Positions 11,925-41,439 of a stretch of DNA of 64,000 nucleotides are shown one piece after another. Made by a program: the position numbers and the translations under genes. The stretch comes from a virus. Numbering within the stretch: position 1 is the first letter of the stretch; each line of letters begins with the position of its first letter. The stretch lies in the UHGV virus genome UHGV-0200554; one strand, 5' to 3'. A model generated the notes under the pieces. That model saw only the letters and a list, made by a program, of their open reading frames with translations, was not told the DNA's origin and ran no database searches.

Positions 11925-12231
11925 TGTGGTTAATTATGTCGCCGATATTGATACATCTGAACCACAAGATGTAACAGTGCACGACTTTACACAACGTCAT
12001 AAAAATCATGATCTTTTGTTGGTGGCAGACAGTGAGGATTATGATGTTTACCATGCTTTTGTGTTCTCTGATACTGTTTTTGAAGTAGGTCAATTCCTGA
12101 CTGTTAACTTCGGAGAAGATACAGGTGTGGAAGATATTGTAACTTTCATTATCGAAGGTCTGGATTGTGTTGACGAAGACGGTACTGCGTTTGAATTGAT
12201 TCTTCGTGTTGTAGAAGAGCTTGACATATAA
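11908..12231 (+). CDS. hypothetical acidic protein
   Basis: ORF track 11878..12231 trimmed to ATG at 11908 with AAGGAGG RBS. Confidence 0.45.
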   Translation: MSLLANVVNYVADIDTSEPQDVTVHDFTQRHKNHDLLLVADSEDYDVYHAFVFSDTVFEVGQFLTVNFGEDTGVEDIVTFIIEGLDCVDEDGTAFELILRVVEELDI

Positions 12232-12297
12232 TCCCAACTTTGGTAACATCAGAAGCATGAAGGGGAGTAGGTGCTCCCCACTACTAAGGAGACAGTC

Positions 12298-12588
12298 ATG
12301 GCTAACAAATTACACAGTTTCTATCTAGATTTCACACACGAAGAGTATGTATGTGAATGCCTATGCCGAGTCCAATTGCCAGATTACAATGAACGGGCAT
12401 CGGACATTGATTACTACGGCTTCCGCGAAATCGCAGAGATTGAAGTCTACAAAGATGGTAACAAATTACCGTTCTTACCTAAAGGTTTACGTAATAAAAT
12501 CAACTTTGCAGCACACAAAGCTCTGGAAGAACACTTGCACTCTGCTGATGTGCTCTCTTCGTTTGCTGAAGAAACAGGTGGCTTTTGA
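12298..12588 (+). CDS. hypothetical protein
   Basis: ORF track trimmed to ATG 12298 with AGGAGA RBS. Confidence 0.5.
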   Translation: MANKLHSFYLDFTHEEYVCECLCRVQLPDYNERASDIDYYGFREIAEIEVYKDGNKLPFLPKGLRNKINFAAHKALEEHLHSADVLSSFAEETGGF

Positions 12589-13063: not shown

Positions 13064-13533
13064 TTTACGAAAGTGACTATATCTGGAAGATTGGCCCTGC
13101 TGCACAAGATCTGATTGAAGTGCCACGGGAAACGCTACAAAAAGCTGCTTTTAAGTTCCGTGATCTTGCAGTGATTGGTAACAGGATCCTGAAATATCTT
13201 AAAAACAAACGTTATGTTGAAGAGAAGTTCTTCGGATTGATCAAAAAAGAAACTACAGTATGGGAACACTACTTGAAAGAGTCTCAGAGCTTCTATGCTG
13301 GGCTGGGCGTAGCTCAGATGGTGATGCATGACGGTTACATCAACCCAACTGAAATGCGTTGCCTACGCTACGCTATAAGCGATTACCCTGGGTTCCTGAA
13401 GTATCATTTAACTGGCACAGCCTCTGAAAAGATTTATCTGACAGAGGAACATTTCGAACAACTGAATAAAATTTTAAACATAGACTTGACATTAGTCTCA
13501 ACAGAGTATACAATTGGGATTCGTGTCGAGTAA
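13060..13533 (+). CDS. hypothetical protein
   Basis: ORF track; followed by terminator. Confidence 0.55.
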   Translation: MIYESDYIWKIGPAAQDLIEVPRETLQKAAFKFRDLAVIGNRILKYLKNKRYVEEKFFGLIKKETTVWEHYLKESQSFYAGLGVAQMVMHDGYINPTEMRCLRYAISDYPGFLKYHLTGTASEKIYLTEEHFEQLNKILNIDLTLVSTEYTIGIRVE

Positions 13534-13538
13534 TAACA

Positions 13539-13565
13539 GCCCTGCCCGAAAGGGCGGGGTTTTTG
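13539..13565 (+). terminator. rho-independent terminator
   Basis: Hairpin CCTGCCCGAAAGGGCGGGG followed by TTTTT. Confidence 0.6.
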
Positions 13566-13585
13566 TGTTTGGAGGGCTAAATAGT

Positions 13586-14320
13586 ATGAAGCAAGGTGTA
13601 GTGTGGGCTTTATTCAATGGCTCCGATATTGCTGTCAAACCCTGGGCTGATGCAGGGTATTTGTGCTTCTGCTTCAATGCAGAAGGGGCAGATCACGGGA
13701 GCTATGCAGAGGTAGTAGAAGAACATCCCAACATTAAGTACATAGATTACTGGATTGACCCGTGGTTCCCACAAGAAACCTTGGGGATGTATCCTGCACC
13801 AGATTTCATCCTGTCGTTTCCACCATGTACCCACTTAGCGGTATCTGGAGCAGCACATTTCAAGAAAAAATTACAAAAAGATCCGTTGATTCAGGTCAAT
13901 GCTGTAAAAGATGCACGTATTGCAGAAACATTGGGTAACATGTATAATTGTCCGTGGCATGTGGAGAACCCTGTTGGGGTTATGTCTAATATGTGGCGTA
14001 AACCAGACTACAAGTTCCATCCGTCTGAGTATGGTGGCTATCTGCCGGAAGATGACCAGAACCCGTGGTTCCCTGACCTGATTAAGCCCAGAGATGCTTA
14101 TCCGAAGCTAACCTGTGGATGGTTTGGGAATGGTTTTGTTGTCCCTGAGAAACGACCTGTGCCGCAGATTTGTGATGTAAATGGGTATTCTTTCCAACAT
14201 ACCAAACTGGGAGGAAAATCTCCTCGTACCAAAATGATCAGAAGCCTGACACCTCGTGGTTGGGCATTAGCCGTGTTTGAAGCCAACGAACCCGTTGTAA
14301 GGAGCAAACTCAATGGTTGA
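13586..14320 (+). CDS. C5-cytosine methyltransferase-like protein (short, atypical)
   Basis: Motif I-like LFNGSD, motif IV-like SFPPCT (PC-T instead of PCQ), motif VI HVENPVG (ENV); start ATG 13586 with GGAGGG RBS. Confidence 0.45.
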   Translation: MKQGVVWALFNGSDIAVKPWADAGYLCFCFNAEGADHGSYAEVVEEHPNIKYIDYWIDPWFPQETLGMYPAPDFILSFPPCTHLAVSGAAHFKKKLQKDPLIQVNAVKDARIAETLGNMYNCPWHVENPVGVMSNMWRKPDYKFHPSEYGGYLPEDDQNPWFPDLIKPRDAYPKLTCGWFGNGFVVPEKRPVPQICDVNGYSFQHTKLGGKSPRTKMIRSLTPRGWALAVFEANEPVVRSKLNG

Positions 14321-14984
14321 CTGGAGCAAATATTTCACCTACAGTGACGGTAAACTGTTCTGGGCGTATACCGCAAAAGCCGGAAGAGGCAGGGTTATAC
14401 ATCACGCAGGCGAGGAGGCCACAGGTACAGACACAGATGGCTATAGGGTGATAAGTGTGTCAGGTGTTGGACGTGTTAGTAGGCATAGAATAATTTGGGA
14501 GATGCATTACGGGGAGATACCTGAAGGCCTTGTTGTGCGGCACAAGAACGACATAGCAGGCGATGATAGGATAGAGAACTTAGTCCTAGGAACACAGGGA
14601 GATAATGTACGAGACATGATCTACAGTGACAAATTGAACATTAACAATACCTCAGGGTGTCGAGGTGTATGCTACCATAGGGGTGTAAAAAGATGGATTG
14701 CATCTGCTGGAGACATATATTTAGGATGTTTTAAGACAAAAGAGGATGCAATTACATGCAGAAAGTTATGGGAGGAGGGAAAATTCGTCCCGCAAGAATT
14801 AGATGTTAGAAATACCAGCGGTGTAACAGGGGTGTTCTATGTGCCAAGCTCTGGAAGGTGGAGAGTTAGAGTACAAAGTGGCAAAAAGAGAAAGAGCTAT
14901 GGTAGTTACAACACTTTAGAAGAAGCAAGAGCTGTAAGGGACAGAGTGATGAAAGAGATTGAGGAGTCTAAAGATGGGGAATAA
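14313..14984 (+). CDS. HNH homing endonuclease with two AP2-type DNA-binding domains
   Basis: HNH_3-like N-terminus (GYRVISV...RHRIIWE...HKN...DNRIENL-like), two AP2-like repeats (GVCYHRGVKRWIA..., GVFYVPSSGRWRVRV...). Confidence 0.7.
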   Translation: MVDWSKYFTYSDGKLFWAYTAKAGRGRVIHHAGEEATGTDTDGYRVISVSGVGRVSRHRIIWEMHYGEIPEGLVVRHKNDIAGDDRIENLVLGTQGDNVRDMIYSDKLNINNTSGCRGVCYHRGVKRWIASAGDIYLGCFKTKEDAITCRKLWEEGKFVPQELDVRNTSGVTGVFYVPSSGRWRVRVQSGKKRKSYGSYNTLEEARAVRDRVMKEIEESKDGE

Positions 14985-17900
14985 GTTTATACCCTCTGCG
15001 TATAGTCGTTATGGGGAACCGAACCCAGTTGCAACAAGATACAAAAGCGGAGGCAGTATGGCACGAGACTATCGTGATGAAAAAGAGGTTGAAACTGTAG
15101 AGACTGTTTTAGAAAATACTAAAATTGTCCCTGTTCCACAACAAAATATCGGACTGACGGCTGCACAATATTTCGGTGTGCGATCAGCATTGTCCCAAGA
15201 AGATGGTGTGACAGTCGTTGCAACATATTTCCCATATTACAACCGCTACGGCAATCTATCTGGCTTTAAAAAGCGTGATTGGTCTAAGCCAAAAGAGCAG
15301 AAAGGGCACTGGTCTGTAGTAGGCATTGTTAAGGCCAACAGCCAGTTCTTCGGTCAGAAAATGGTTGGTGAAGGCTCAGACCATCGTAAAATCATTGTCT
15401 GCGAAGGTGAAGGCGATGTTATTGCTGCGTGGCAGACTGAATGGATGATGGTCAGGAAAATAGCTACAGACCCGTCATCAAATAAGAAAGCTAAAGCGTG
15501 GGCACAAAGCGTTCTTGACGGTATTAAAGCCGTGCAGGATGGTGGTTCTGCTAAAGGTTTTCCCACAATTAACGTGGTAGGGCTTAATTGTGGTTGTGCG
15601 AATGCCGTAGACGCTTTTGCCAACAACGAGAAGTTTATTCGTGGCTTTGATGAGATTGTCCTGGCCTTCGATAATGACGCTGCAAATGATGTTGAGAAGC
15701 TAAAACATGTCACCAAAGGTGTTGAAGCCACTCACAATGTTGCAGCTTTCCTGATGGCTGACAACGTTTTCCATGTGCAGTATCCGAGCGAGGTAAATGA
15801 TCCAGAGGGTTACAAAGATATCCGTGATTTGTTCCAGGCTAAAAAGTATGATCAAATTCACGATATGTTCAAAAACCCGATCAAATACGTGCCAGACGCT
15901 GTAGCAGGCCTGAATGATTTCTCAATTGAAGATTTACGTAAAAAATCCACCAATGGTGTTGACATTGGGGCAGAGTTCCCTAAACTCCAGAAAATGTTGA
16001 AAGGTTTGCATAAAGGCACACTGGTCATGTTGACTGGCCCTTCCGGCGGTGGTAAGACTACGGTAGCTAAGAAGATTGAGCACCAGATAGCTAAATACCT
16101 GATGGATCCTACGGTGGCTAAAGCTGATGACTACGACCCCGAAGACAGGTTGTGTATGATTCACCTGGAAGAGGACCCAGAAGAAGCCATCAACTCGCTG
16201 TATGCTAACCAGCTGGGGTATGATATCAAGAATTTCATGGAGGACCCAAGCAAGTATCTGACCGAGCAGGAACACTTTGAAATCCACAAAGCCTGGGTTG
16301 ATGCTGATAAAATCAGAGTATTCCGGCACTTCGGTTCAATACCTGTAAACGACCTGATCACCAAGCTGAAACAGATGGTGTGCTTGTATCATTGTCGTTA
16401 CATCGTACTGGATCATCTGTCAATGGTTATTTCTGGTTTGAATGTAAAAGATGAGCGTAAAGAGCTGGACCTTGCAATGACGCAGCTTGCAGCATTCTGT
16501 AAGCAATTCAATGTGTTCATTTTGGTGATTGCACACTTACGTCGTACAGAGATTATCCCACCGAAGGATAAAGAAGGTAGGGCTTTACCGTTCTGGTATC
16601 CTGTCCGTAAAGAAAACCTTCGTGGTTGTGTTTCTGCGGACACAGAGTTTTTAACCCCGCAGGGGTGGAAACGCATAGATAACTATGCAGAAGGGGATTT
16701 GGTTGCGCAGCACGATGAAAATGGCGTAATGACTTTCGTAACCCCGAAAGCCTACATCAATCTTCCTTGCGAAGAAATGTGGCATGTTTCCAACACTCAC
16801 GTTGTAGACATGTTGTTGAGCGATGAACATCGTGTTGTATATGTGAATGACAGAACGCCAGATGTTTTCCGTACGAAAACCATGTTGGAAGTTGTCTATG
16901 ACCACAACAACAAGCCTTCAGGTATGCGTGGGAAAATACCTGCTACGTTCCTCACAGGGTGCAATGGGACGCTGGGGTTGACTGATGACCAATTACGCCT
17001 ACAGGTTGCTGTAAATGCTGATGGGACAGTTCTTACTGAGTCAACAGGAAGAGTGGCTGTGAGAATCAAAAAAGATCGGAAAAAACAACGTCTCGAGATG
17101 CTGCTGGAGAAAACAAACACCACTTATAGGCGTCTTGATTTGCACGGGGTGCACGAAGGACGCACAGAGTACCAATTTAAAGCACCGTGTGGGTATAAAG
17201 GTGTGACTGGGGAATGGTTTAATCTCAAACAACACGAGTTGGAGATTATCTGTGATGAGGTTATGTATTGGGACGGAGATTCTGTGAACAAAAACAGGGT
17301 GTCCACCATTAACAAACTTGAAGCGGACTTCTTACAGTTTGCCTACAGCGCCTGTGGACATAGAACATCTTTATCCATGAAGGAGAACAACAGTGGCTTT
17401 GGCGGTAGTTACAACTGTAAACCTTTGTACGAGGTAAATGTTTGCAATACTAAGTACATGCATATACGCAAAGGTAGTAATAACAAACCCTCTATTGAAC
17501 GTGTACCTTCCCCAGATGGACGTAAGTATTGCTTTACGTTACCGTCGGGTATGTGGGTGGCGCGCCGCAATGGGCATATTTTTATCACAGGAAATTCGGG
17601 GAGTATGGAACAACTCAGTTGGGTTGTCATAGGGGTAGAAGCAGAAGAGATGCCTGACAGGTCCCGTGGGCGTGTCCGTTTAGTTAGCCTAAAAAACAGG
17701 CCAGCTAAAACCTTGGGTATCGCTGATGTGCTGATTATGAACCCTGAGACTGGTAAATTCTCCGATGCCAGTGACTGGGTGTGGGATAAAGAGACAGGTT
17801 TCTTCCTGAACAAAGATGGGGATATTGTCTGGAGGCCACAAGATATGTTCGACAATGAAGAACATGTTGTTGTGGAAACTCCTGAAGGTAAGGTTACCGC

Positions 17901-18015
17901 CGATGTGAAACCTCAACCAAAATCTGTTGACGCAGAAGGGGAAGAAGATGATGGAGTGGATGATCAGAGTGTAATCCAACAGGAGTTCCCTGAGGATGAA
18001 GATTGTCCGTTCTGA
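14974..18015 (+). CDS. bifunctional DNA primase-helicase (T7 gp4-like), intein-containing
   Basis: TOPRIM motifs (IIVCEGEGD, VLAFDNDAAND), Walker A GPSGGGKTT, helicase motif split by intein; acidic C-terminus ending DEDCPF; ATG 14974 with GAGGAG RBS. Confidence 0.8.
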   Translation: MGNKFIPSAYSRYGEPNPVATRYKSGGSMARDYRDEKEVETVETVLENTKIVPVPQQNIGLTAAQYFGVRSALSQEDGVTVVATYFPYYNRYGNLSGFKKRDWSKPKEQKGHWSVVGIVKANSQFFGQKMVGEGSDHRKIIVCEGEGDVIAAWQTEWMMVRKIATDPSSNKKAKAWAQSVLDGIKAVQDGGSAKGFPTINVVGLNCGCANAVDAFANNEKFIRGFDEIVLAFDNDAANDVEKLKHVTKGVEATHNVAAFLMADNVFHVQYPSEVNDPEGYKDIRDLFQAKKYDQIHDMFKNPIKYVPDAVAGLNDFSIEDLRKKSTNGVDIGAEFPKLQKMLKGLHKGTLVMLTGPSGGGKTTVAKKIEHQIAKYLMDPTVAKADDYDPEDRLCMIHLEEDPEEAINSLYANQLGYDIKNFMEDPSKYLTEQEHFEIHKAWVDADKIRVFRHFGSIPVNDLITKLKQMVCLYHCRYIVLDHLSMVISGLNVKDERKELDLAMTQLAAFCKQFNVFILVIAHLRRTEIIPPKDKEGRALPFWYPVRKENLRGCVSADTEFLTPQGWKRIDNYAEGDLVAQHDENGVMTFVTPKAYINLPCEEMWHVSNTHVVDMLLSDEHRVVYVNDRTPDVFRTKTMLEVVYDHNNKPSGMRGKIPATFLTGCNGTLGLTDDQLRLQVAVNADGTVLTESTGRVAVRIKKDRKKQRLEMLLEKTNTTYRRLDLHGVHEGRTEYQFKAPCGYKGVTGEWFNLKQHELEIICDEVMYWDGDSVNKNRVSTINKLEADFLQFAYSACGHRTSLSMKENNSGFGGSYNCKPLYEVNVCNTKYMHIRKGSNNKPSIERVPSPDGRKYCFTLPSGMWVARRNGHIFITGNSGSMEQLSWVVIGVEAEEMPDRSRGRVRLVSLKNRPAKTLGIADVLIMNPETGKFSDASDWVWDKETGFFLNKDGDIVWRPQDMFDNEEHVVVETPEGKVTADVKPQPKSVDAEGEEDDGVDDQSVIQQEFPEDEDCPF
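16627..17595 (+). other. intein (about 323 aa) inserted in helicase motif of primase-helicase
   Basis: Starts with Cys after ENLRG, ends ...ITGN followed by Ser; removal restores LRG-SGSMEQLS matching the T7 gp4 DLRGSGALRQLS motif; possible degenerate LAGLIDADG-like segments inside. Confidence 0.7.
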
Positions 18016-30868: not shown

Positions 30869-31210
30869 ATGAAGAATCAAACAGTAACAATGCAATGGGT
30901 AGATGTTGATGGCGTGGAGAACATGCCAATCGGTGTATATTTCGTATGTATGCGGGACTGTAATGGTCTGCAACAATATGGTGTATGCGAAGTTGTTATG
31001 GCTGGGCAGGGCAAATATGCACATAAAGTTGGCGTGATCAGTGGTCAATTTTATTTTGAATTCCCACCAATCGTAGCATACATGGTTATCCCAGACTATG
31101 TGCCGATTCAGGACGGAAAACGCCGTTGCCCACACTGTGGTAGCACTGATATCGGTATGGCGCGGGACGATTTATTCTGCTTCTGCTGCCGCCGTTTCCT
31201 GGTGGAATAA
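30869..31210 (+). CDS. hypothetical protein with C-terminal zinc-ribbon-like motif
   Basis: CPHCGS...CFCC near C-terminus; AGGAGAG RBS. Confidence 0.5.
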   Translation: MKNQTVTMQWVDVDGVENMPIGVYFVCMRDCNGLQQYGVCEVVMAGQGKYAHKVGVISGQFYFEFPPIVAYMVIPDYVPIQDGKRRCPHCGSTDIGMARDDLFCFCCRRFLVE

Positions 31211-31220
31211 GGAGTGTACT

Positions 31221-31415
31221 ATGTTCGAGCTTAAATCTTGCACAATCGTAGCACCAGGGGATCGTATCCGTATCCCAGGCCGTCACGAAATCCTACAGGT
31301 TAAAAGCATCGAGTCTGTAGGTAACCGTGTTCTCCTGTTCAAATTTGAAAATGGACACCAGGTGTACATGAGAATGAGAAGCAAAGTGTACATTGACAGG
31401 GGTGCTAAAGAATGA
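31221..31415 (+). CDS. hypothetical protein
   Basis: ORF track trimmed to ATG 31221 (AAGGAG RBS). Confidence 0.45.
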   Translation: MFELKSCTIVAPGDRIRIPGRHEILQVKSIESVGNRVLLFKFENGHQVYMRMRSKVYIDRGAKE

Positions 31416-31738
31416 ATGAAGTATGGGAAATCTGTGTAGACGTAGCAGGAATCACGCTTATAGGTGCTCTGGTTATTGCTCTGGCGCTGGTAGGATACAA
31501 GATGGCACTTCTGCCTTTCCTGGAAGCATTCAGCCTGTGTCATTGCTGGCGTAGAGCATATGGACCACAACCTGTAAAAGACTGGTTCACTTTGTACCGT
31601 ATTGCACTATCTTACACGTTTGATCATTCACGCTTAAACTGCATTGAAAGCTATCATGCTGATGGTTGGTGGTGGGTAGGATTATTCAGATGGGAGGTGA
31701 CAGAGGTAACTCCGAAACGAATGCTTAAGAAAAATTGA
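31412..31738 (+). CDS. hypothetical membrane protein
   Basis: ORF track; N-terminal hydrophobic helix; last gene of plus-strand module. Confidence 0.5.
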   Translation: MNEVWEICVDVAGITLIGALVIALALVGYKMALLPFLEAFSLCHCWRRAYGPQPVKDWFTLYRIALSYTFDHSRLNCIESYHADGWWWVGLFRWEVTEVTPKRMLKKN

Positions 31739-32059
31739 TTTTAGAATTATAAAAGTTTTAGATGACAAGGGGAAATCTGTAATAGATTTTCCCTTATTTA
31801 TCAGATATTTGCAGATATTTGAAAATCATTAGAAACTTAGGTAATTAGGAGCGTACGAAAATGGATTTTTTAAAAGCATAAGCAATCATTTAGCAAATTA
31901 GCCAAATAGATTTTAGCCTATTGCTATTGTGTATGCATGTATTTGCATATGCCTTGCACATATCCCCACACACCTCTTCCCACATTCCCACACAGTTCTC
32001 GGTTGACCCGCCAATCTCCCCTCCACAACTCTCCCAGTAATTTCCTTAAGTACTCGATC

Positions 32060-32160
32060 TGTTTTTCAAAATCGAAATCGGATTCTGAAAATCTCGACAG
32101 CTTTTCTCCTCGGTTCTCGATAGGTTTTTTATTTTCGATTTTGGATTCTGGATCTCGGTC
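32060..32160. repeat. inverted repeats (AAAATCGAAAT / ATTTCGATTTT) in non-coding leader
   Basis: AAAATCGAAATCGGATTCTG and TTTTCGATTTTGGATTCTGG copies about 60 bp apart. Confidence 0.45.
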
Positions 32161-32316
32161 TGGTTCTGGCTAGGCCTGCGCCTGAGGAACGAAAGCACTT
32201 TTTTATTTTTGAAAGTGGATTTTGAATTTCTATATAGAAAAAATTTACCCCCTACCATTTTTGGTAGATAGTCACGGTACGTAATTAGCCTGCTAACTAA
32301 ATTTTAGATAGTTTCA

Positions 32317-32500
32317 TGAGTGATTATCACCGTTACTATAAATTGCCGTAACTATAAATCACCGTGCGTTACTATTTTAATTTCACCATGCAACTATAAA
32401 TCACGGGCCGTTATTATTTATATAGAAAACTATTACTAACCGTGCGTTATTACCTCAATTTGCTTAGGTTACTATTAATCACCGTAAGTAACTATTTTTT
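32317..32500. repeat. iteron-like array (CACCGT...ACTAT(A/T)AAT units, about 8 copies)
   Basis: Repeated ATCACCGT and (T/A)ACTATAAAT-like units at irregular spacing; non-coding. Confidence 0.5.
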
Positions 32501-32859
32501 AAATGATAATCATTCTCAAAATATATTGCGTGCATCCCCGGTGATTGTCTCCCGGCCCCTGGTGCCCCGGCTTGATTATATAATAACAGATCCGGCCCCC
32601 ATGTCAACAGCTTTTTTAGAAAAATATTAGTTACAACATCCTGGCGCCACCTGGCAGGGCCATCATGACCATGATCCGGTCCGGCGCTTGCGCCCTGGTC
32701 CATCCTCCGCACATTAGTTACAGCATTCCAACGACCGATCCCCGATAGTCTGCAACCTGGCGGGGCCGCCTGGTCCACTGGACCGCCTCCCCTGGTCCGG
32801 TGGGGAGTCCGGCTTGCAATTCAAAATGTGATCTGTGTCAACCTTTCACCATGTAGCTA

Positions 32860-32888
32860 TTGATCAGGTTACGGCCTAGTGTATTCTA
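32860..32888 (+). promoter_or_regulatory. promoter-like element (TTGATC-17-ATTCTA) with conserved GTATTCTATAG(G/C)TGAA start region
   Basis: Paralogous to element at 38496; followed by purine-rich leader. Confidence 0.4.
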
Positions 32889-32955
32889 TAGGTGAAGGGA
32901 AACAAAGGGGAAACGGAAAGCAAAACACCAGGCCGCAAGGCAGGAGGAAAATAAA

Positions 32956-33132
32956 ATGAAAGGCATGGTTAACAACAACAACGTAAAAGAGAGGGAAATT
33001 ATTGTTAATGGTCGTGAGATTGACAATAAACGCCGGAAAGCTATGCGTGATGCCCTGGTCAACTGGTTGGATTATGAAAAAATGATGGTAATGGCAGCGG
33101 GTGCCGCAGCTGGTGAATTTAACCACAGATAA
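32956..33132 (+). CDS. small hypothetical protein (58 aa)
   Basis: Not in ORF track; GGAGGAAAATAAAATG initiation module; hand translated. Confidence 0.45.
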   Translation: MKGMVNNNNVKEREIIVNGREIDNKRRKAMRDALVNWLDYEKMMVMAAGAAAGEFNHR

Positions 33133-33148
33133 CCACAGGGGGGCAAAG

Positions 33149-33343
33149 GTGTTAGCTTATAATCTTCCAGGCCGTCGCCGTACGGTTGCCGACCAGGTAA
33201 CGGCAAAGGCAGACGTAACAATCAACAACGGGCAGGGCCTTTACAAGTTTAAACGGGGGAACAGCTATACGATCCAGTTTCTTAACCGTTGTGCTTTAAC
33301 ACCTGGTCAGATCAACCATTGGTTTAAAGCTAAAAAATTTTAA
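33149..33343 (+). CDS. hypothetical basic protein
   Basis: ORF track 33101..33343; possible GTG start 33149 after AGGGGGG; start uncertain. Confidence 0.35.
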   Translation: MLAYNLPGRRRTVADQVTAKADVTINNGQGLYKFKRGNSYTIQFLNRCALTPGQINHWFKAKKF

Positions 33344-33351
33344 AAAATTAG

Positions 33352-33380
33352 TTGACACCAGAAAGAAATAAAGTATTATA
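33352..33380 (+). promoter_or_regulatory. sigma70-like promoter with A-tract UP element
   Basis: AAAAAATTAGTTGACA, 17-bp spacer, ATTATA; conserved GAAAGCAGTA downstream. Confidence 0.55.
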
Positions 33381-33428
33381 GATAGTGAAAGCAGTACACA
33401 AGGTTAACAAAATATAAGGAGTAACATC

Positions 33429-33830
33429 ATGAGCGCTTTTAACACTGATTTCGATTTCTCTGGTCTGGAAGAAGTTCGCGATCTTCGTAACTGCCGCCGC
33501 GAAAACGGTTTTTATAAATCTCTGGACCTGGTGGCACTGGACCACAAAATGGACCTGGAAGAAGTAGCAACGATTCGTTTCTACCAGTCACCGCGCGGTA
33601 ACACTGTTTACTGTGTAGTATGGGTACATGAAGCAGGGCACGAATTTTATGCCACTGCTGGCGGGAAAGCTGGTGGCTATGGTTACGATAAAGAGGAGGC
33701 CGCATTACGGGAAGCTATCGAGGCGATGGGTGTAAAAGCTGGCGATTATGCTCACCCTGAAAAATTTTTAATCCAGCTTGCTCGCTACTTCGGATATGAA
33801 AAAGCTAAAGTGATTGAAGCACACGCATAA
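33429..33830 (+). CDS. hypothetical protein
   Basis: ORF track; AAGGAG RBS; CGY-biased Arg codons. Confidence 0.55.
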   Translation: MSAFNTDFDFSGLEEVRDLRNCRRENGFYKSLDLVALDHKMDLEEVATIRFYQSPRGNTVYCVVWVHEAGHEFYATAGGKAGGYGYDKEEAALREAIEAMGVKAGDYAHPEKFLIQLARYFGYEKAKVIEAHA

Positions 33831-33842
33831 GCTGCCTTTTAG

Positions 33843-33863
33843 ATGGCCCCCTGGTGGGGCCAT
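33843..33863 (+). repeat. intergenic palindromic element (TTTTAGATGGCC...GGCCAT family)
   Basis: ATGGCCCC-CTGGT-GGGGCCAT hairpin preceded by GCCTTTTAG and followed by TGATAAAG. Confidence 0.5.
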
Positions 33864-33907
33864 TGATAAAGGTAACTTGGGGCAACAATAACCGAGAGAA
33901 AGAAAAT

Positions 33908-34342
33908 ATGAAACGTTTACCACGCTGGATCCGCTTTATTAATAAACTTGCCGCAGATGAAAAAATCCAGGCTATGCATAAAGATAACCGCGAACGCCGT
34001 GCTGCCTTACGAGATTATCGCCGCATGTTGGCAAAGTTAGCCAATAAAAATGGCGTTCTTAAACCGTTCCGCAAAGTGATCCACCTGGTCGCTATGGGAG
34101 CGCCTAAGGTGGCAAACGTTCCAAACGTCCATAAGATTGATGACCGCGACGTTGTAAGAGATATTGATAAAGATTTTTCTCCGAAGGCCATCAATCAGCG
34201 GATCAACAGCTGCAAAAATAAGAAAGATCTTGATAATTTGTTAGATAGCCTCGACGCTTTAGGGTGTGATTATGATTTCTTAGATGACAAGATTAATAAA
34301 AAATACCGCGAATTGGCTGGTTATCGCGTCAACCGGATTTAA
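33908..34342 (+). CDS. hypothetical basic protein
   Basis: ORF track trimmed to ATG 33908. Confidence 0.5.
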   Translation: MKRLPRWIRFINKLAADEKIQAMHKDNRERRAALRDYRRMLAKLANKNGVLKPFRKVIHLVAMGAPKVANVPNVHKIDDRDVVRDIDKDFSPKAINQRINSCKNKKDLDNLLDSLDALGCDYDFLDDKINKKYRELAGYRVNRI

Positions 34343-34629
34343 CATATCAGAATAGTTGGCCCTGGTGGATCCGATCCGTGCACGGTCCAGGGTATGCCCG
34401 AAAACCTCCCCCATTACGCCGCTACGCCTGTTTTGAAGGTGTGGCGGTGTAGTTGCACCTCTTTGCAAAACACCTCGCCATAATACTTATTTGATGCCTT
34501 ATTTTCGATACGCTCAAATAATGACCAATCAATCGCCCCCACCATGATTTTTTTCTTGCAATCCCCCAATGTATGAATACAATAACAATTGAAGGCAGTA
34601 TTAACAAAAACACAAGAAGGGGAAACAAA

Positions 34630-34800
34630 ATGGATAAAATCTATTACGTTGTTTATCGCGGCCTTAATGTTGCCTGGTACGACAATTTGGCTGAGGCAAT
34701 GGAAGAGGCGCACGACCGTTACGACCTGGGGCGTAACCGCCTTGAAGTGGTGGATAGCGACGGCGTGATCTATTGGTGTAGTGAGGATCTGGAATACTGA
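34630..34800 (+). CDS. small hypothetical protein (56 aa)
   Basis: ORF track 34573..34800 trimmed to ATG 34630 (AAGGGGAAAC RBS). Confidence 0.45.
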   Translation: MDKIYYVVYRGLNVAWYDNLAEAMEEAHDRYDLGRNRLEVVDSDGVIYWCSEDLEY

Positions 34801-34811
34801 AAAAAAAATAG

Positions 34812-34840
34812 TTGACACGACCGTTTGAAAGTGTAGTATA
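34812..34840 (+). promoter_or_regulatory. sigma70-like promoter with A-tract UP element
   Basis: AAAAAAAATAGTTGACA, 17-bp spacer, AGTATA. Confidence 0.5.
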
Positions 34841-34895
34841 TAAACCGAAGGGGAAAGAAATTTCCCAGAGGTAAAAAACAAAGAGGATAAAAATC

Positions 34896-35171
34896 ATGGC
34901 TATCATCGAAAAAGTAAACGTTCCAGCCACTTATAATAAAGGTTATAACGGTTGGAAAAATTACAATCAGTGGAACGTTGCACTGTGGATCAATAACGAC
35001 GAAAGTTTATACTTCTTTGCCCTGGGCTTGATTAATGAGTGTGGCAATAAAGACGCGGCAGCTGATTTGATGGTTTACCGCTTGAAAGAAGAGGGGATCA
35101 CTCATACGCCTGATGGGGTGCCTTACAATAAAACTAACATCCGCGCCGCTATGGTCGGAATGCCGCACTGA
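34896..35171 (+). CDS. hypothetical protein
   Basis: ORF track; RBS GAGGAT. Confidence 0.5.
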   Translation: MAIIEKVNVPATYNKGYNGWKNYNQWNVALWINNDESLYFFALGLINECGNKDAAADLMVYRLKEEGITHTPDGVPYNKTNIRAAMVGMPH

Positions 35172-35247
35172 TAGCCGCCTTACCCTGGGGCCGTGGCAGC
35201 GCCCCATGAATAAGGTTACTACCCCCACAATAACAGGAGGTAACATT

Positions 35248-35358
35248 ATGAACATTATCGCGGCAATCATTGTAGGCTATGCCCTCTTTTTGCTGGGCTT
35301 GCACCTGGCGGCAGTTATCAAAGGCCTGATCGATTTCTTTAAAAAAGATGAAAAATAG
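35248..35358 (+). CDS. small membrane peptide (36 aa)
   Basis: ORF track 35113..35358 trimmed to ATG 35248 with AGGAGG RBS; hydrophobic. Confidence 0.4.
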   Translation: MNIIAAIIVGYALFLLGLHLAAVIKGLIDFFKKDEK

Positions 35359-35360
35359 TG

Positions 35361-35389
35361 TTGACAGGTGAGAGAAAATAAATATACTT
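35361..35389 (+). promoter_or_regulatory. sigma70-like promoter
   Basis: TTGACA 35361-35366, 17-bp spacer, ATACTT; GAAAGCAGTA downstream. Confidence 0.5.
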
Positions 35390-35438
35390 AACCATGAAAG
35401 CAGTAAACGAGATTAATAAAACACAGGAGAAAAAGATC

Positions 35439-35849
35439 ATGAAAACTACTTTCCGTAATGCAAATGGTTTAACTGCATTCGCTTTAGCTTGTGGATATGT
35501 TCAAATGGTAGAGGGGCGGGATCGTGAAATGGTGGATCTGTTTAAAGCCCACGGTTGCTACCATGTTCGCGCTTTTAATGCTGATGGCGAGCGGCAAGCA
35601 TGGTTTAGTGTGCCATCTTTAACTGATGCCCGTCGCCATTGGAAAGAACTGGTAAAACTGATTTTCGGTGCACGCATTGCACAAGTGAAACGCTGCAAAC
35701 GTTACGAAGTGCGCCACGTCCTGGACCTGAGAGGGGAGGCAGTTTACCAGGTTATCTATCGCTACGATGGGGAGTCTCGCCACGTCGGCTACTGTGAAAA
35801 CGTGGACGCGGCATGGATGATTGCACACCGCGACTATGTAAGCCTATAG
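35439..35849 (+). CDS. hypothetical protein
   Basis: ORF track trimmed to ATG 35439 (CAGGAGAAAAAG RBS). Confidence 0.5.
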   Translation: MKTTFRNANGLTAFALACGYVQMVEGRDREMVDLFKAHGCYHVRAFNADGERQAWFSVPSLTDARRHWKELVKLIFGARIAQVKRCKRYEVRHVLDLRGEAVYQVIYRYDGESRHVGYCENVDAAWMIAHRDYVSL

Positions 35850-35872
35850 GTTATTTTTCGGTGGCCTGGGTA

Positions 35873-35901
35873 TTGACACCGGGCCATCTATAAAGTAACC
35901 T
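35873..35901 (+). promoter_or_regulatory. promoter-like element with -35 inside palindromic loop
   Basis: GGTGGCC-TGGGTATTGACACC-GGGCCATC; TTGACA 35873-35878. Confidence 0.35.
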
Positions 35902-35933
35902 AAAGATCCACACAACGAAGGGGGGGAACAATC

Positions 35934-36026
35934 ATGAAAAACTATTCTCACTATTTGATCCGTCGTGATGTTATGATTATGGCCCTGGGCTACCTGGTTA
36001 TGTTTGCTTTTCGTGTAATGCTGTAA
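35934..36026 (+). CDS. small hydrophobic peptide (30 aa)
   Basis: Not in ORF track; RBS GAAGGGGGGGAA; hand translated. Confidence 0.35.
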   Translation: MKNYSHYLIRRDVMIMALGYLVMFAFRVML

Positions 36027-36044
36027 AATAAATTAAAAAATTAG

Positions 36045-36073
36045 TTGACACAGTAGCAAAAATAAGTAAACTT
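36045..36073 (+). promoter_or_regulatory. sigma70-like promoter with A-tract UP element
   Basis: AAAAAATTAGTTGACA; weak -10; GAAAGAAGTAATTAG downstream. Confidence 0.45.
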
Positions 36074-36117
36074 AAAACTGAAAGAAGTAATTAGTAAACC
36101 ACAAAGAGGAAAACATC

Positions 36118-36477
36118 ATGAAACGCATCAATAAGGCTATGGCTAACGCAATCCGTGCTTATGTAGTTGACAGCTTAAACTTTGACGACATGGAACACGA
36201 CAACGACGTTGAGGAACTGAAAGCACGCTTTGAAGCTGAGCATTTTGACGGCTATTATATCCGTCGCTTTAACGGCAACCGTGTAAAAGCAATGGCCGAC
36301 TGGTTAGCAGGACTGCCGAGCGGTGTAGACATTGACTTCTGTAATGATGACATTTTAAACCGCTTGCGTGAGTTCGGAATCATTGACGAAAAAACTAAAG
36401 AAGACACTAAAGATCGCTACATTGACGAATGGTTTGAACTGATGGCGCGGTTTTATGTGGAACTAGCATACAAATAA
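36118..36477 (+). CDS. hypothetical protein
   Basis: ORF track; AGAGGAAAACATCATG module. Confidence 0.55.
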   Translation: MKRINKAMANAIRAYVVDSLNFDDMEHDNDVEELKARFEAEHFDGYYIRRFNGNRVKAMADWLAGLPSGVDIDFCNDDILNRLREFGIIDEKTKEDTKDRYIDEWFELMARFYVELAYK

Positions 36478-36516
36478 AATAGCTTGCTTTTAGATGGCCT
36501 CGAAAAAAAAAAATAG

Positions 36517-36545
36517 TTGACACGGGGCCATCGATAAAGTAAACT
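36517..36545 (+). promoter_or_regulatory. promoter-like element with -35 inside TTTTAGATGGCC...GGCCATC palindrome
   Basis: GATGGCC-TCGAAAAAAAAAAATAGTTGACACG-GGGCCATC; TTGACA 36517-36522. Confidence 0.4.
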
Positions 36546-36583
36546 AACACACAGTAAGAAGTAACAACAAAGGAGAAAACATT

Positions 36584-36922
36584 ATGAACGCTAACATTGA
36601 ACTGATTGCACGTCGTGCCGCCCTGGTTGCAGCTATCGAACAATTGAACAATAAAATTGAAAACTTTGAAATTGATCCAGATGACTACGAAAACGACTAC
36701 GATGATTTACTAGACGAAGGCGGTGCGGTAGTGGTAGGCGGTTGCGAATTTCTCCCGTCTAGAATCCTCCGCGAACTGGATCCGATTGCTTATCGTTGCG
36801 GCCTGAATGATTATATAGACAACATTGATGTAAGCGATGACGCAAACTATTGTGATTTGTGTGACGATCTGGCTGACCTTGAGGCAGAACTAGGGGAAGT
36901 CGAGGAAGCGCTACGTAACTAA
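36584..36922 (+). CDS. highly acidic small protein (DNA-mimic candidate)
   Basis: ORF track; 112 aa very rich in Asp/Glu (DPDDYENDYDDLLDE..., DVSDDANYCDLCDDLADLEAELGEVEE). Confidence 0.55.
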   Translation: MNANIELIARRAALVAAIEQLNNKIENFEIDPDDYENDYDDLLDEGGAVVVGGCEFLPSRILRELDPIAYRCGLNDYIDNIDVSDDANYCDLCDDLADLEAELGEVEEALRN

Positions 36923-36933
36923 GTTGCCTTTTA

Positions 36934-36957
36934 GATGGCCTCCCTGGCGGGGCCATC
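36934..36957 (+). repeat. intergenic palindromic element (TTTTAGATGGCC...GGCCATC family)
   Basis: GATGGCC-TCCCTGGCGG-GGCCATC preceded by GCCTTTTA, followed by CATAAAG. Confidence 0.5.
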
Positions 36958-37001
36958 CATAAAGATAATTTAGTGTAACCACAATAAAAAGGAGTTACGC
37001 A

Positions 37002-37250
37002 ATGGCAAAATTAATTAACTTTGCAGCGGTGGACCTGGTAAAAGCTGATTGGTATTATAGCAATGGTCGCGCCGTTTGGTGGCGTGAAGGGGGTGCCGAG
37101 GGCAAAGTAAAAGCGCGTATGATTAAAGGTTACCATTTAGATCGCCCTGTAATTCGTATCAATGGGAAGCTGGTCGCTTTCATGCATATCAAAGCGGTTG
37201 ACGATATTGAAAAAATTTTGAACGTCAACTATTTTAAAATGTTAGGGTGA
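37002..37250 (+). CDS. hypothetical protein
   Basis: ORF track; AAGGAG RBS. Confidence 0.5.
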   Translation: MAKLINFAAVDLVKADWYYSNGRAVWWREGGAEGKVKARMIKGYHLDRPVIRINGKLVAFMHIKAVDDIEKILNVNYFKMLG

Positions 37251-37339
37251 CATGCCAGGCGGGGGCCGTTAGTCCGGCCCCCTCTATCCAACCAGGAGGA
37301 GGTGACACTATGCCCAGTTAACAACAGAGAGGAAAATAT

Positions 37340-37678
37340 ATGGACCTCATGACGTGCATACTCGCATTTATTGCAATAGGTGTAGTCTGGAACAAAGTAA
37401 AAAACCAGAGTTATTACGCCAGATGCCAGGCTTTTCGGGTGAATCCGTGGGATATTGATCCGGGTGCTGATTATGTTATCAAGTACCAGGACCGACACGG
37501 CAAACAATATGTAACGCCGTCGCCGATACCGGCCTATTGCTTGCTGGAATACACAGACAAGATAAAACAGGCAGGTTTTTTAATTGTTGACCTGTGGGGC
37601 CGCCACGGTGACGCGAAAAAATTTATTAAAGCAGTGGCTGCAAATATTGCAGCACAAGAAAACGACGATGAAGAGTAA
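37340..37678 (+). CDS. hypothetical protein with N-terminal hydrophobic segment
   Basis: ORF track; GAGAGGAAAATATATG. Confidence 0.5.
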   Translation: MDLMTCILAFIAIGVVWNKVKNQSYYARCQAFRVNPWDIDPGADYVIKYQDRHGKQYVTPSPIPAYCLLEYTDKIKQAGFLIVDLWGRHGDAKKFIKAVAANIAAQENDDEE

Positions 37679-37692
37679 CAGGAGCGCCGATT

Positions 37693-37914
37693 ATGAACAT
37701 GGTAAACTTTGAAAAAATTACTAAGCGCAATCATTTATCTGACGAACTACCGGAACGCCGCCAGCGTAACAACAAGCTGAATAAACCGCGTCGATTTGGT
37801 AAACTGTGGCGCAACTATTACGACCGTAATTTACGCCGCCTGTTACTTGAACGTGAACGCCAACAAATGAGATACGCAGCACGGCGGGAACGGATGAAAG
37901 CAGACGAAATTTAA
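37693..37914 (+). CDS. Arg-rich basic small protein
   Basis: ORF track; RRQRNNKLNKPRR...RRERMK. Confidence 0.5.
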   Translation: MNMVNFEKITKRNHLSDELPERRQRNNKLNKPRRFGKLWRNYYDRNLRRLLLERERQQMRYAARRERMKADEI

Positions 37915-37930
37915 CCGATAGGCCCCCAGG

Positions 37931-37954
37931 TGGGGGCCTTTCTTCATTTGTAAC
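37931..37954 (+). terminator. rho-independent terminator
   Basis: GGCCCCCA-GG-TGGGGGCC hairpin then TTTCTT. Confidence 0.6.
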
Positions 37955-38154
37955 ATAGCGCAATCAATTTTAAGGCCCTTAAAACGCCCTACAACGCAAA
38001 GAAGCCTAAAGGTGAACAATTGCATTACCCGCCCCCAATTAGTAATTTGTGATCAAGATCTCACAAAAATTAATAGGTAAAAACCTTATTTACTTCTTAT
38101 AGGATCTGCATACCATTTTAATTGAAAGAAGAAACACAGCAGGAGGAAAATAAA

Positions 38155-38364
38155 ATGGTCTACTGTGATTATGCCAATGATGCACTGGGCCGCTATGAGA
38201 AAGGCCGTTATTATGACCTGAGCGAAATAATTGATAACGAGGATTATTACATCGATAAGAATGATGATCATCTAGTCGTTATCCATCGCGTAGTCGATCC
38301 GATGTGCTTCGTGGACGTTAGCCCGATTGTGGCACGCTTTGAAATTATGGTATTGGAGGCTTGA
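38155..38364 (+). CDS. hypothetical acidic protein
   Basis: ORF track trimmed to ATG 38155 (CAGGAGGAAAATAAAATG). Confidence 0.5.
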   Translation: MVYCDYANDALGRYEKGRYYDLSEIIDNEDYYIDKNDDHLVVIHRVVDPMCFVDVSPIVARFEIMVLEA

Positions 38365-38366
38365 TT

Positions 38367-38468
38367 ATGTTACTTGAAATGCTGATGAATCCGATTATTT
38401 CTATGGGCCTGATCTTTGTAGTTGTCTGCCTGGTTGTTGGTTTTATCTTGAGCAATATGCGGAAGTAA
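38367..38468 (+). CDS. small membrane peptide (33 aa)
   Basis: Not in ORF track; hydrophobic; TGATTATG coupling; hand translated. Confidence 0.35.
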   Translation: MLLEMLMNPIISMGLIFVVVCLVVGFILSNMRK

Positions 38469-38495
38469 AAATTTTTAAAAAGCTATGAAAAAGTG

Positions 38496-38526
38496 TTGAC
38501 ACGGCCCCCCGGTTTGGTATTCTATA
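38496..38526 (+). promoter_or_regulatory. sigma70-like promoter with conserved GTATTCTATAGCTGAA start region
   Basis: TTGACA 38496-38501, 17-bp spacer, ATTCTA; paralogous to 32860 element; followed by about 250-nt purine-rich leader. Confidence 0.5.
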
Positions 38527-38777
38527 GCTGAAAGGAAAAGAAAGGGAACAAGAAGGAAAGTTCCGGGAGCGGGAAAAGAAGGGTAAGGGAAAAGCCTTGA
38601 AGCATAGCTAACCGAAGGACCGAGGGAGCCGGGAGCGGCCCTAAAAGATACTCAAAGAAGTAAAAAGAAGTTGACAAGGTAACACAAAGCAGTAAAATAA
38701 AGTTGAAAGGGAAGGATGCAGGGAGCAACAAGGACCGGATAAACCGGGGGGAGCTGAAAGAAAACGAGGAAAATAAA

Positions 38778-38864
38778 ATGAAAGACTACTACAAAGCAAA
38801 CGAATATGAAAGGGTAGCAGATTTCATTAAAGAAATGTTAAAAGGTCTGAATAATAAAAAATGA
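38778..38864 (+). CDS. tiny ORF (28 aa)
   Basis: GAGGAAAATAAAATG module; hand translated; coding status uncertain. Confidence 0.3.
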   Translation: MKDYYKANEYERVADFIKEMLKGLNNKK

Positions 38865-38872
38865 GGTGGGGT

Positions 38873-38986
38873 ATGAAAAACAAGCAAGAAAGGCCCGAAG
38901 ATGACAAATTTACATGGCGTGAGCTTTTAAACATCTGGTACATCATTTACGGGCAACATTATAAACACAGAGGAGGGAGGTTATAA
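38873..38986 (+). CDS. tiny ORF (37 aa)
   Basis: RBS GAGGTGGGG; followed by GGAGGGAGG-TTATAAA-CCTCCCACC hairpin; coding status uncertain. Confidence 0.3.
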   Translation: MKNKQERPEDDKFTWRELLNIWYIIYGQHYKHRGGRL

Positions 38987-39033
38987 ACCTCCCACCACAA
39001 AGAAAGAAACAACAACCAAGCGAGGAAAATAAA

Positions 39034-39261
39034 ATGAGCAACGTTATCAAGTTCCCCATGAATCGTGTAAAACCATCTAAAGGTGTGGTTAATTTCGATA
39101 ATAAGGTTTACCGCATGGCCTGGATCGTTAGAAACAGCGACAATAAGGGCGATATCTGGGTAGAGGCATTCAGGCGGGAGGTTGATGCTATTTTTTCAAG
39201 AAGTGTAAGGGGAGGCCGGATCATTAGAGGATTTTTCAAAGCGGCACCGGAAGAGGTTTAA
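39034..39261 (+). CDS. hypothetical protein
   Basis: ORF track; GCGAGGAAAATAAAATG module. Confidence 0.5.
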   Translation: MSNVIKFPMNRVKPSKGVVNFDNKVYRMAWIVRNSDNKGDIWVEAFRREVDAIFSRSVRGGRIIRGFFKAAPEEV

Positions 39262-39266
39262 AAAGG

Positions 39267-39300
39267 TTGACAAATCATAAAAAACAAGTAGACTGATAAT
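39267..39300 (+). promoter_or_regulatory. sigma70-like promoter (spacer ambiguous)
   Basis: AAAAAGGTTGACA; GATAAT -10 candidate; CGAAAGCAGTA downstream. Confidence 0.4.
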
Positions 39301-39336
39301 CGAAAGCAGTAAACAATTTAAAAGGAGAACATAATC

Positions 39337-39531
39337 ATGAAACACATCAACATCGTAAACCTGAAAAAAGTTTGCAAAATTGCAATTTTTGTGGAAGGTG
39401 TCGAGGCTTATCGTTGCGACTACGAAGATTATAAAGATGCGTTAGCTTTCCTCCTGGACGTGGCACACCACAACAATCTAGACTATGAAGCCATCGAGGC
39501 AGCCGAAAAAGTTATGGCAATTGCCGCATGA
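39337..39531 (+). CDS. hypothetical protein
   Basis: ORF track; AAGGAGAACATAATCATG. Confidence 0.5.
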   Translation: MKHINIVNLKKVCKIAIFVEGVEAYRCDYEDYKDALAFLLDVAHHNNLDYEAIEAAEKVMAIAA

Positions 39532-39542
39532 GTTAGCTTTTA

Positions 39543-39569
39543 GATGGTCCACGATGCGAAAGTGGATCA
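39543..39569 (+). repeat. intergenic palindromic element (TTTTAGATGG...CATCAATAAAG family)
   Basis: ATGGTCCAC-GATGCGAAA-GTGGATCAT preceded by GCTTTTAG. Confidence 0.45.
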
Positions 39570-39612
39570 TCAATAAAGAAAACTCAACCACGAAGCAAGA
39601 AGGAGAAACATC

Positions 39613-39843
39613 ATGGACCTTATGACAGCTGTTGCAACATACGACTATAAAAACTTTTTTGATGTAGTCATGATTAAAAAACCAGCTAACGCCCGGATGC
39701 CTGCAAATGGTTACGGTAAAAAATTACCGACTAACTGGATGATCAATTTCGAGGGCCGTATGCGCCGCGTCTATGTTGATATCTGTGGCAATTCTGGACA
39801 CAGGTACATCATGGTTAAAGGCCGTAAATTTACTATCATGTAA
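39613..39843 (+). CDS. hypothetical protein
   Basis: ORF track; AGGAGAAACATCATG. Confidence 0.5.
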   Translation: MDLMTAVATYDYKNFFDVVMIKKPANARMPANGYGKKLPTNWMINFEGRMRRVYVDICGNSGHRYIMVKGRKFTIM

Positions 39844-39904
39844 CACGATTTCAACCAGGGCCGGAAGTCCGGCCCTATCATCAACCAACAAAGGGGATCA
39901 AAAA

Positions 39905-40024
39905 ATGAAAGACAAGCCTCGACCTTGCAGCGATACAATTTACCATCTGATAGCATGGTGTGAGATCCTGGCAATTGAAGCCCTTATGGGTGTTGGCATT
40001 TACTTTATAGCGATCTATAATTAA
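39905..40024 (+). CDS. small membrane peptide (39 aa)
   Basis: ORF track 39773..40024 trimmed to ATG 39905 (AAAGGGGA RBS). Confidence 0.35.
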   Translation: MKDKPRPCSDTIYHLIAWCEILAIEALMGVGIYFIAIYN

Positions 40025-40057
40025 CGCGAAAGGAAATAGCCATGAGGAATAAAAGCA

Positions 40058-40414
40058 ATGAGAATCATCGACCTGTTAAACCGTATGCCGGACGTCAACG
40101 AGATGGCCCCCGATATGAACGAAATTGATCGAGAAGCTGCCGAAAAAGCGGCCCGTAAAATTAAATGCCGTGGGGCCGCTATCGGTGCGGTGCTTTTTGG
40201 CCTTGCTTATGCTCATATTGATTTGGTCCATAACATTTTCCACAATGCACCGATCAAAATCGTGTTAGCCTGGATTGTCTGCTACGTGTGCGGTGAGTAC
40301 ATTTACCCGGTTGCCAAAAAATTGGCCCCGTGGGCCGTCCTGGGTGCGGTGATCTATTATGTTGCGCCTGTGATTATTGCAATCGTAAAACATTACACAG
40401 CGCAACAAATGTAA
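40058..40414 (+). CDS. membrane protein
   Basis: ORF track; multiple hydrophobic helices. Confidence 0.5.
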   Translation: MRIIDLLNRMPDVNEMAPDMNEIDREAAEKAARKIKCRGAAIGAVLFGLAYAHIDLVHNIFHNAPIKIVLAWIVCYVCGEYIYPVAKKLAPWAVLGAVIYYVAPVIIAIVKHYTAQQM

Positions 40415-40425
40415 GAGATTCTAAG

Positions 40426-40449
40426 GGCCGCAAATAAGCGGCCTTTTTT
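40426..40449 (+). terminator. rho-independent terminator (GGCCGCAAATAAGCGGCC + T6)
   Basis: Perfect 6-bp stem, AAATAA loop, TTTTTT; identical hairpin recurs at 43944. Confidence 0.75.
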
Positions 40450-41035: not shown

Positions 41036-41130
41036 AAAAAATCTTCATAAAGGCTTGCAATGTGCAGGCCTTTTTCCTACTATAAAGGTGAAGAAAGAAG
41101 TAAGGCCAACAGTTAGAGGAGTAACAAATT

Positions 41131-41340: not shown

Positions 41341-41361
41341 AAAAGTTAGAAAAAAAAACGG

Positions 41362-41389: not shown

Positions 41390-41439
41390 TAAAGTGAAAG
41401 AAGTAATTAGAAACAACAAAATAAGAAGAGGTAAGTATC

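Follow-up and report, generated by a model that had tools for sequence, protein, structure and literature searches.

The window, a 64-kb stretch of the phage genome UHGV-0200554, carries at positions 13586–14320 (+ strand) a gene for a short Dcm-like DNA cytosine-C5 methyltransferase, the orthologue of rV5 gp226. The gene belongs to a large family of phage cytosine-5 methyltransferases (the phrog_757 type) that are unusually short and have already been annotated; it is an ordinary member, and the sole unusual feature of this copy is a recurrent variant of its cofactor loop (motif I). Taken as a whole, the data are best explained by a gene product that works as a SAM-dependent DNA cytosine-C5 methyltransferase of this family, which we consider probable. 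The gene, its family membership, fold, conservation, purifying selection and covariation were obtained in the analysis; the activity of this copy, its use of SAM, its target site and its role we infer.

The ORF of about 245 codons described in an earlier note on this DNA proved real. It is intact, runs from an ATG at 13586 to a TGA at 14318–14320, encodes 244 residues, and is preceded by a ribosome-binding site that can be read directly from the sequence (GGAGG, 13571–13575, + strand, 10 nt 5′ of the ATG). A search of PHROGs gave a full-length match to phrog_757, ‘DNA methyltransferase’ (E = 1.8e-81, residues 1–242 against profile positions 12–226 of 247). An indexed search returned 1336 homologues, an exhaustive search of representatives returned 2131 clusters at 50% identity, and dN/dS within the clade that has Asp at position 14, as the window copy does, was 0.02–0.06 at a dS of about 0.4. 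The pattern of this ORF is therefore not due to chance. By tblastn the gene was found in 1500 phage records, with the best matches (about 80% identity) in rV5-like E. coli phages, where it is annotated as ‘DNA methyltransferase’ (rV5 gp226) or ‘Dcm-like C5 cytosine methyltransferase’ (BASEL phages). Some 39 records labelled ‘Campylobacter phage’, of about 135–143 kb (MG065654, MG065666 and others), also carry an rV5-type copy; its identity to the query, 79.8%, is the same as that of the E. coli rV5-like phages, which suggests that these records are mislabelled or contaminant E. coli phage genomes.

A search of methylase profiles had been proposed as a check, with the lack of a match counting against the assignment. 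Pfam and NCBIfam indeed gave no match to the window protein even at E ≤ 10, while PHROGs, the fold search described below and 39 of 60 relatives, which match PF00145 weakly (best E = 1.3e-6), lead to the C5-methylase family. Taken as a criterion, the absence of a profile match would thus have misled. A search of PDB sequences with the single window protein found no match. Because Pfam and NCBIfam miss this copy, automated pipelines would call the methyltransferase hypothetical, and the practical value of the present assignment is one of annotation; it leaves current understanding unchanged. The phrog_757-type family is among the most widespread phage methyltransferase families, which matters since one member triggers retron Ec86/Eco1, and its enzymes of about 240 residues are among the smallest cytosine-C5 methyltransferases.

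Two of the three motifs named in the earlier note are present as described, LFNGSD (aa 9–14, 13610–13627; family consensus LFDGSG) and SFPPCT (aa 77–82, 13814–13831), both on the + strand. The third, given as ENV, really lies in V-E-N-P-V-G (aa 126–131) and so reads ENP; motif VI is E-N-P-V (aa 127–130, 13964–13975, + strand), with Glu127 as the counterpart of the ENV glutamate. Motif IV contains the catalytic Cys81 (codon TGT, 13826–13828), and its register places it opposite PCN of DNMT3B, C82 of K42 Dcm and PC of E. coli Dcm. Throughout the family, the residue after the Pro-Cys of this motif is Thr, not Gln. P79, P80 and C81 are invariant in an alignment of 60 homologues and PPCT occurs in 116 of 120 close homologues; E127, N128 and P129 are likewise invariant, ENP occurs in 119 of the 120, and E127 matches E128 of K42 Dcm. 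Towards the C-terminus a motif IX-like block, R-S-L-T-P-R-G (aa 219–225, 14240–14260, + strand), is conserved in distant representatives, and its R219, S220, L221, T222, R224 and G225 are invariant among the 60 homologues. The window protein thus has all three family signatures, FPPCT, ENP and RSLTPRG, which are invariant or nearly so both in this alignment and in distant representatives. A conserved R169-D170-x-Y172-x-K174 block and a conserved A-N234 are candidates for motifs VIII (Q-x-R-x-R) and X (G-N-x-V); no motif X was identifiable with certainty in the window protein. As almost all phrog_757-type members are 210–260 residues long, short length, PCT and ENP are the norm of this very large annotated family, and the idea that the protein is an atypical one-off does not hold.

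At nine positions the window protein deviates from the ≥85% consensus of 57 homologues that do not belong to its clade. Several of these departures (H83, W124, H125, M133 and the loss of K175) are shared by the rV5-type sequence of the alignment, and the window protein has Leu (L175) where K42 Dcm has one lysine of the mutated K175/K176 pair. Distant family members (P0121–P0270) do not conserve the first Gly of F-x-G-x-G, with Tyr, His, Arg, Leu and Phe common at position 12, and the acidic residue of motif II is Asp in most family members, the enterobacterial-phage subfamily having Asn31 instead. The family therefore has a cofactor pocket that is generally atypical for C5-methyltransferases.

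The window protein is predicted to have the C5-methyltransferase fold. An AlphaFold2 model built on the 60 homologues reached a pLDDT of 91.2 and a pTM of 0.90, and the top Foldseek matches in the PDB were the catalytic domains of DNMT3A and DNMT3B (E = 6e-6, probability 1.0), with DNMT3 and bacterial DNA methyltransferases outscoring DNMT2. Searched against PDB sequences, the family profile gave only weak matches to DNMT3B (E = 0.35), in register from motif I (LFDGIA) to motif IV (PCN), which we used for motif register and not as proof. The DNMT3A/DNMT3B catalytic domain is just 12–16% identical to the window protein; DNMT3 enzymes have motif X and act as oligomers with regulatory domains, whereas the window protein has no motif X that we could find and ends about 20 residues past motif IX. 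With E. coli Dcm and M.EcoRII (PF00145), from which both the ‘Dcm-like’ name and the proposed CCWGG target derive, it shares the superfamily chemistry of a Pro-Cys nucleophile and a conserved Glu. E. coli Dcm, however, has 472 residues, PCQ, ENV and a large target-recognition domain, in contrast to 244 residues, PCT, ENP and no large domain of this kind in the window protein. An hhalign comparison of the family profile with E. coli Dcm aligned motif IV alone (25 columns, probability 1.1%) and revealed no shared recognition domain.

The closest experimental evidence is found in a retron Ec86 preprint (bioRxiv 10.1101/2023.08.16.553469), which describes the 711-bp dcm gene of K42, a KarlJaspers-type phage of the Drexlerviridae. 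In that study, K42 escape mutants disrupted dcm, expression of dcm gave more 5mC in the retron Ec86 msDNA (by LC-MS), and a C82A/E128A/K175A/K176A mutant of the protein was inert. A K42 deletion that included dcm was viable, so dcm is not essential at least in K42. The K42 dcm finding is cited as established in a later paper (PMC12916289). Over its full length (E = 1e-84), the window protein shares 52% identity with bas06_0055 of KarlJaspers, also the product of a 711-bp gene, with C81 and E127 in register with C82 and E128. Given this identity and the K42 5mC data, the family has one member with reported DNA C5-methylating activity, and the assignment of the window protein as a short C5-cytosine methyltransferase is backed by its fold, by its motifs and by a relative at 52% identity, the K42 orthologue of which has been characterised experimentally.

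The window protein and the KarlJaspers/K42 Dcm, the trigger of retron Ec86/Eco1, have in common an architecture of about 240 residues and the PPCT, ENP and RSLTPRG motifs. They differ in motif I (LFDGSG in KarlJaspers/K42, LFNGSD in the window), in the second Lys of K175/K176, which is Leu in the window, and in a variable loop (NPGW against GYSxQH type). Their settings also differ: K42/KarlJaspers dcm lies in the accessory region of a siphovirus, the window gene in the replication module of a myovirus. Closer relatives are rV5 gp226 and the BASEL Vequintavirinae enzymes, which share with the window gene about 80% identity, the GYSxQH loop, the position of an upstream promoter and the slot 5′ of the primase/helicase. 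These rV5-type proteins have a canonical LFDGSGG motif I, in contrast to N11/D14 in the window clade, and an annotated N-terminus that is 10 residues longer. The literature searched contained no methylome data, and no 5mC data, for rV5-like phages or Vequintavirinae C5 enzymes.

What sets the window clade apart is a change of G14 to Asp together with D11 to Asn, giving LFNGSD in place of LFDGSG. The F-x-G-x-G of motif I thus reads F-N-G-S-D, with its last Gly replaced at a position that is Gly in 55 of the 57 close homologues outside the clade. A sister lineage, the third Vequintavirinae-like one, has LFDGSE, that is D11/E14, and profile alignment puts the window motif I on LFDGIA of DNMT3B. 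In close relatives D14 is encoded by either GAT or GAC and has therefore been kept through synonymous changes. Covariation was analysed in 137 representatives of the 50%-identity clusters, namely those alignable at both position 11 and position 14. Gly14 accompanied Asn11 in none of 10 sequences, compared with 105 of 127 with other residues at position 11 (Fisher p = 1.4e-7, a value that ignores relatedness). Four mutually distant representatives combine Asn11 with Asp or Glu at position 14 (LFNVTD, ICNLTD, LFNSSD and LFNLTE), and all four retain PCT and ENP. As the nearest relatives of the window lineage are of the D..G type, the N..D state arose independently in this lineage. From these patterns we read LFNGSD as a compensated pair, in which the carboxylate of the loop would have shifted from position 11 to position 14 to give an alternative, working cofactor loop. 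That G14D is a sign of a decaying gene is ruled out by the low dN/dS, the synonymous D14 codons and the recurrent covariation. The paired N11/D14 change also offers a cheap mutational probe of SAM binding by a minimal enzyme.

Other explanations of the gene have to be set against this one. The LFNGSD clade might have lost or weakened SAM binding and kept the protein for a non-methylating role, for example in regulation, as a decoy for host defence or as a sequence-specific DNA binder near replication. We think this unlikely, since P80, C81, E127, N128, P129 and RSLTPRG are all retained under strong purifying selection, since distant members whose catalytic Cys and Glu are intact show the N..D/E state again, so that it resembles a compensated pair, and since DNMT3 enzymes, which have Ala at the position profile-aligned to G14, are active. 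The points that do speak for lost SAM binding are the Asp at an otherwise almost constant Gly, a score below every Pfam and NCBIfam threshold, and sequence conservation stronger than in the adjacent replication genes, an unusual trait for an accessory orphan methylase. A more ambitious proposal, and a similarly doubtful one, is that N-x-S-D/E in motif I marks a distinct subclass of mini-methyltransferases with altered cofactor handling or kinetics; the GYSxQH loop would be a minimal recognition element for a target other than CCWGG, and the enzyme would have a core role in replication or gene control in Vequintavirinae. If true, conservation of the gene above that of the primase/helicase would indicate a core role rather than simple anti-restriction.

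Transfer of a different group in place of methyl, such as carboxymethyl taken from Cx-SAM in the manner of CmoX, or some other cytosine modification that is not 5mC, is very improbable. Its sole pointer is a fold match to CmoX (PDB 8yf3), a phage DNA cytosine C5-carboxymethyltransferase of 333 residues with an SPPC motif, a Cx-SAM-binding Arg350 and gene linkage to CmoA/CmoY, none of which was found in the window protein or the window. The selectivity of CmoX depends on an Arg in place of Asn304 of M.HhaI (PMC12783734), and the candidate counterpart of Asn304 in the window protein, its conserved C-terminal polar residue, is Asn234, not Arg. The added Asp in motif I would disfavour a carboxylated cofactor, the 64-kb window has no CmoA homologue, K42 Dcm, whose Bas06 counterpart shares 52% identity with the window protein, gives 5mC, and the high sensitivity of Vequintavirinae to restriction-modification also argues against such a modification. 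Lower still do we rate an RNA (tRNA) cytosine-5 methyltransferase of the DNMT2 type: RNA had been raised as a possible target, but DNMT3 and bacterial DNA methyltransferases rank above DNMT2 and the K42 orthologue methylates DNA.

If the window gene encodes an active DNA cytosine-C5 methyltransferase, as we favour, homology to C5-methyltransferases predicts that Cys81 (motif IV, PPCT) would attack C6 of a flipped-out cytosine and that Glu127 (motif VI, ENP) would protonate N3. The motif I loop would hold SAM, whose methyl group would move to C5, and β-elimination would follow. Encoded immediately 5′ of the primase/helicase, the enzyme would be expressed as part of the replication module and would mark newly made phage DNA at a short, specific site. 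Protection from a cognate class of restriction enzymes would be the likeliest benefit, with a CCWGG/EcoRII-type target as a candidate.

The absence of an obvious target-recognition domain was noted correctly: there is no large one. Between the motif VI/VIII region and motif IX, conservation is poor in one segment alone, a loop of about 23 residues (aa 185–207, 14138–14206, + strand; pLDDT 79–83), which lies at the position of a target-recognition domain. Among 120 close homologues, 58 have a loop of the GYSxQH type, as do the window and rV5, and 39 have one of the NPGW type, as do KarlJaspers and K42. Since the loops are of different types, the specificity of K42 Dcm, or CCWGG, is not simply transferable to the window enzyme. 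For K42 itself, CCWGG was assumed from the ‘Dcm’ name and from the loss of defence on mutation of CCTGG in the msDNA, and was not mapped; the host was dcm+ (bioRxiv 10.1101/2023.08.16.553469).

Some bounds on the role of the enzyme come from restriction data. Vequintavirinae are exceptionally sensitive to the restriction-modification systems tested with the BASEL collection (PMC8594841), so any protection by the window enzyme must be site-specific and narrow, not broad. We considered the ‘Dcm’ of Klebsiella phage KP27 (KP27_137), whose DNA is resistant to EcoRII (PMC3620542), as a characterised family member and rejected it, as it is a canonical 303-residue PCQ enzyme. Being unrelated to the window family, it lends its EcoRII evidence no bearing here. 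The 64-kb window, part of a genome of about 137 kb, holds no homologue of canonical Dcm, Vsr or CmoA (best tblastn E for CmoA, 0.89). McrBC does not act on CCWGG methylated at its inner C, which would make such a target safe in E. coli. For this reason, which is not evidence, CCWGG stays a candidate target.

The clustering of CCWGG in the central part of the window was borne out: of the 162 sites in the window, the density is 5.5 per kb at 31–44 kb, compared with 1.65 per kb at 1–31 kb and 2.0 per kb at 44–64 kb. Over the whole window, however, CCWGG is near its third-order Markov expectation (observed/expected 0.91), so that the count is uninformative on the methyltransferase gene. As footprints of methylation or repair, the observed/expected ratios of CCWGG, CTWGG and CCWAG were likewise uninformative. 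Within 31000–44000 the ratio is 1.32 for CCWGG, at a threefold density, and 0.64 for the depleted CTWGG/CCWAG. The region from 30 to 45 kb has very few long ORFs (7 of at least 120 aa), several CCWGG sites lie at the tips of GC-rich hairpins (33850, 36943, 37926 and 41946), and a run at 32558–32800 resembles a Gly/Pro-rich repeat. No tRNA genes were found anywhere in the 64-kb window.

The phage is a new, rV5-like (Vequintavirinae-like) one, with DNA similarity to known phages of at most about 83% over short stretches, and near-identical contigs of about 137 kb are present in metagenome assemblies. In the window, in rV5 and in the other loci compared, the methyltransferase gene always lies just upstream of the primase/helicase, save for inserted genes. 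Amino-acid identity to rV5 is 79–80% for the methyltransferase, 55–76% for the primase/helicase, 45–63% for the helicase and about 40% for small neighbouring ORFs.

Upstream of the gene, a consensus match identifies a putative sigma-70-like promoter (TTGACA-17-TACAAT, 11 of 12 positions; 13486–13514, + strand), which falls within the 3′ end of the preceding ORF; the rV5 record has a sigma-70 promoter, P231, annotated at the equivalent position. Between this site and the methyltransferase gene is a terminator-like GC-rich hairpin (13538–13570, + strand), with a 10-bp stem that includes 7 GC pairs, a GAAA loop and a subsequent T-run. The promoter-like site thus runs within about 25 nt into a strong hairpin and T-run, just 5′ of the methyltransferase start. 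Judged by its sequence, this arrangement (13486–13570) could be a leader or attenuator, could yield a tiny transcript, or could comprise the signals of separate transcription units.

Downstream, a homing-endonuclease gene with HNH_3 and AP2 domains (14313–14984) lies between the methyltransferase and the primase/helicase, and its start and the methyltransferase stop overlap (ATGGTTGA). EmilHeitz and Phage 203/206 carry the endonuclease gene and L004–L006 and L010 lack it, a patchy distribution that fits a mobile element. The primase/helicase gene (14974–18015) has an insertion of 323 residues (16627–17595) relative to rV5 gp225 (692 aa). With CVSADTEF at its start and HIFITGN|S at its end, the insertion resembles an intein; its one Pfam match, to Hint_2, is weak (E = 0.13). 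Among related loci, L007 carries an insertion at this site and L010 one at another site.

The rV5 N6-adenine methyltransferase (gp230) is absent from the window (syntenic slot 12204–12307) and from all loci of the D14/E14 clades, and is also missing from one rV5-type locus, L009. As L009 has G14, a tie between the D/E14 state and loss of this methylase is ruled out. The Bas51 orthologue of gp230 triggers retrons Asa1 and Squ1 (PMC12548924); we did not take this as evidence on the C5 gene, since it concerns the neighbouring N6-adenine methylase. Unlike the C5 enzyme, the N6-adenine methyltransferase appears to be an accessory gene.
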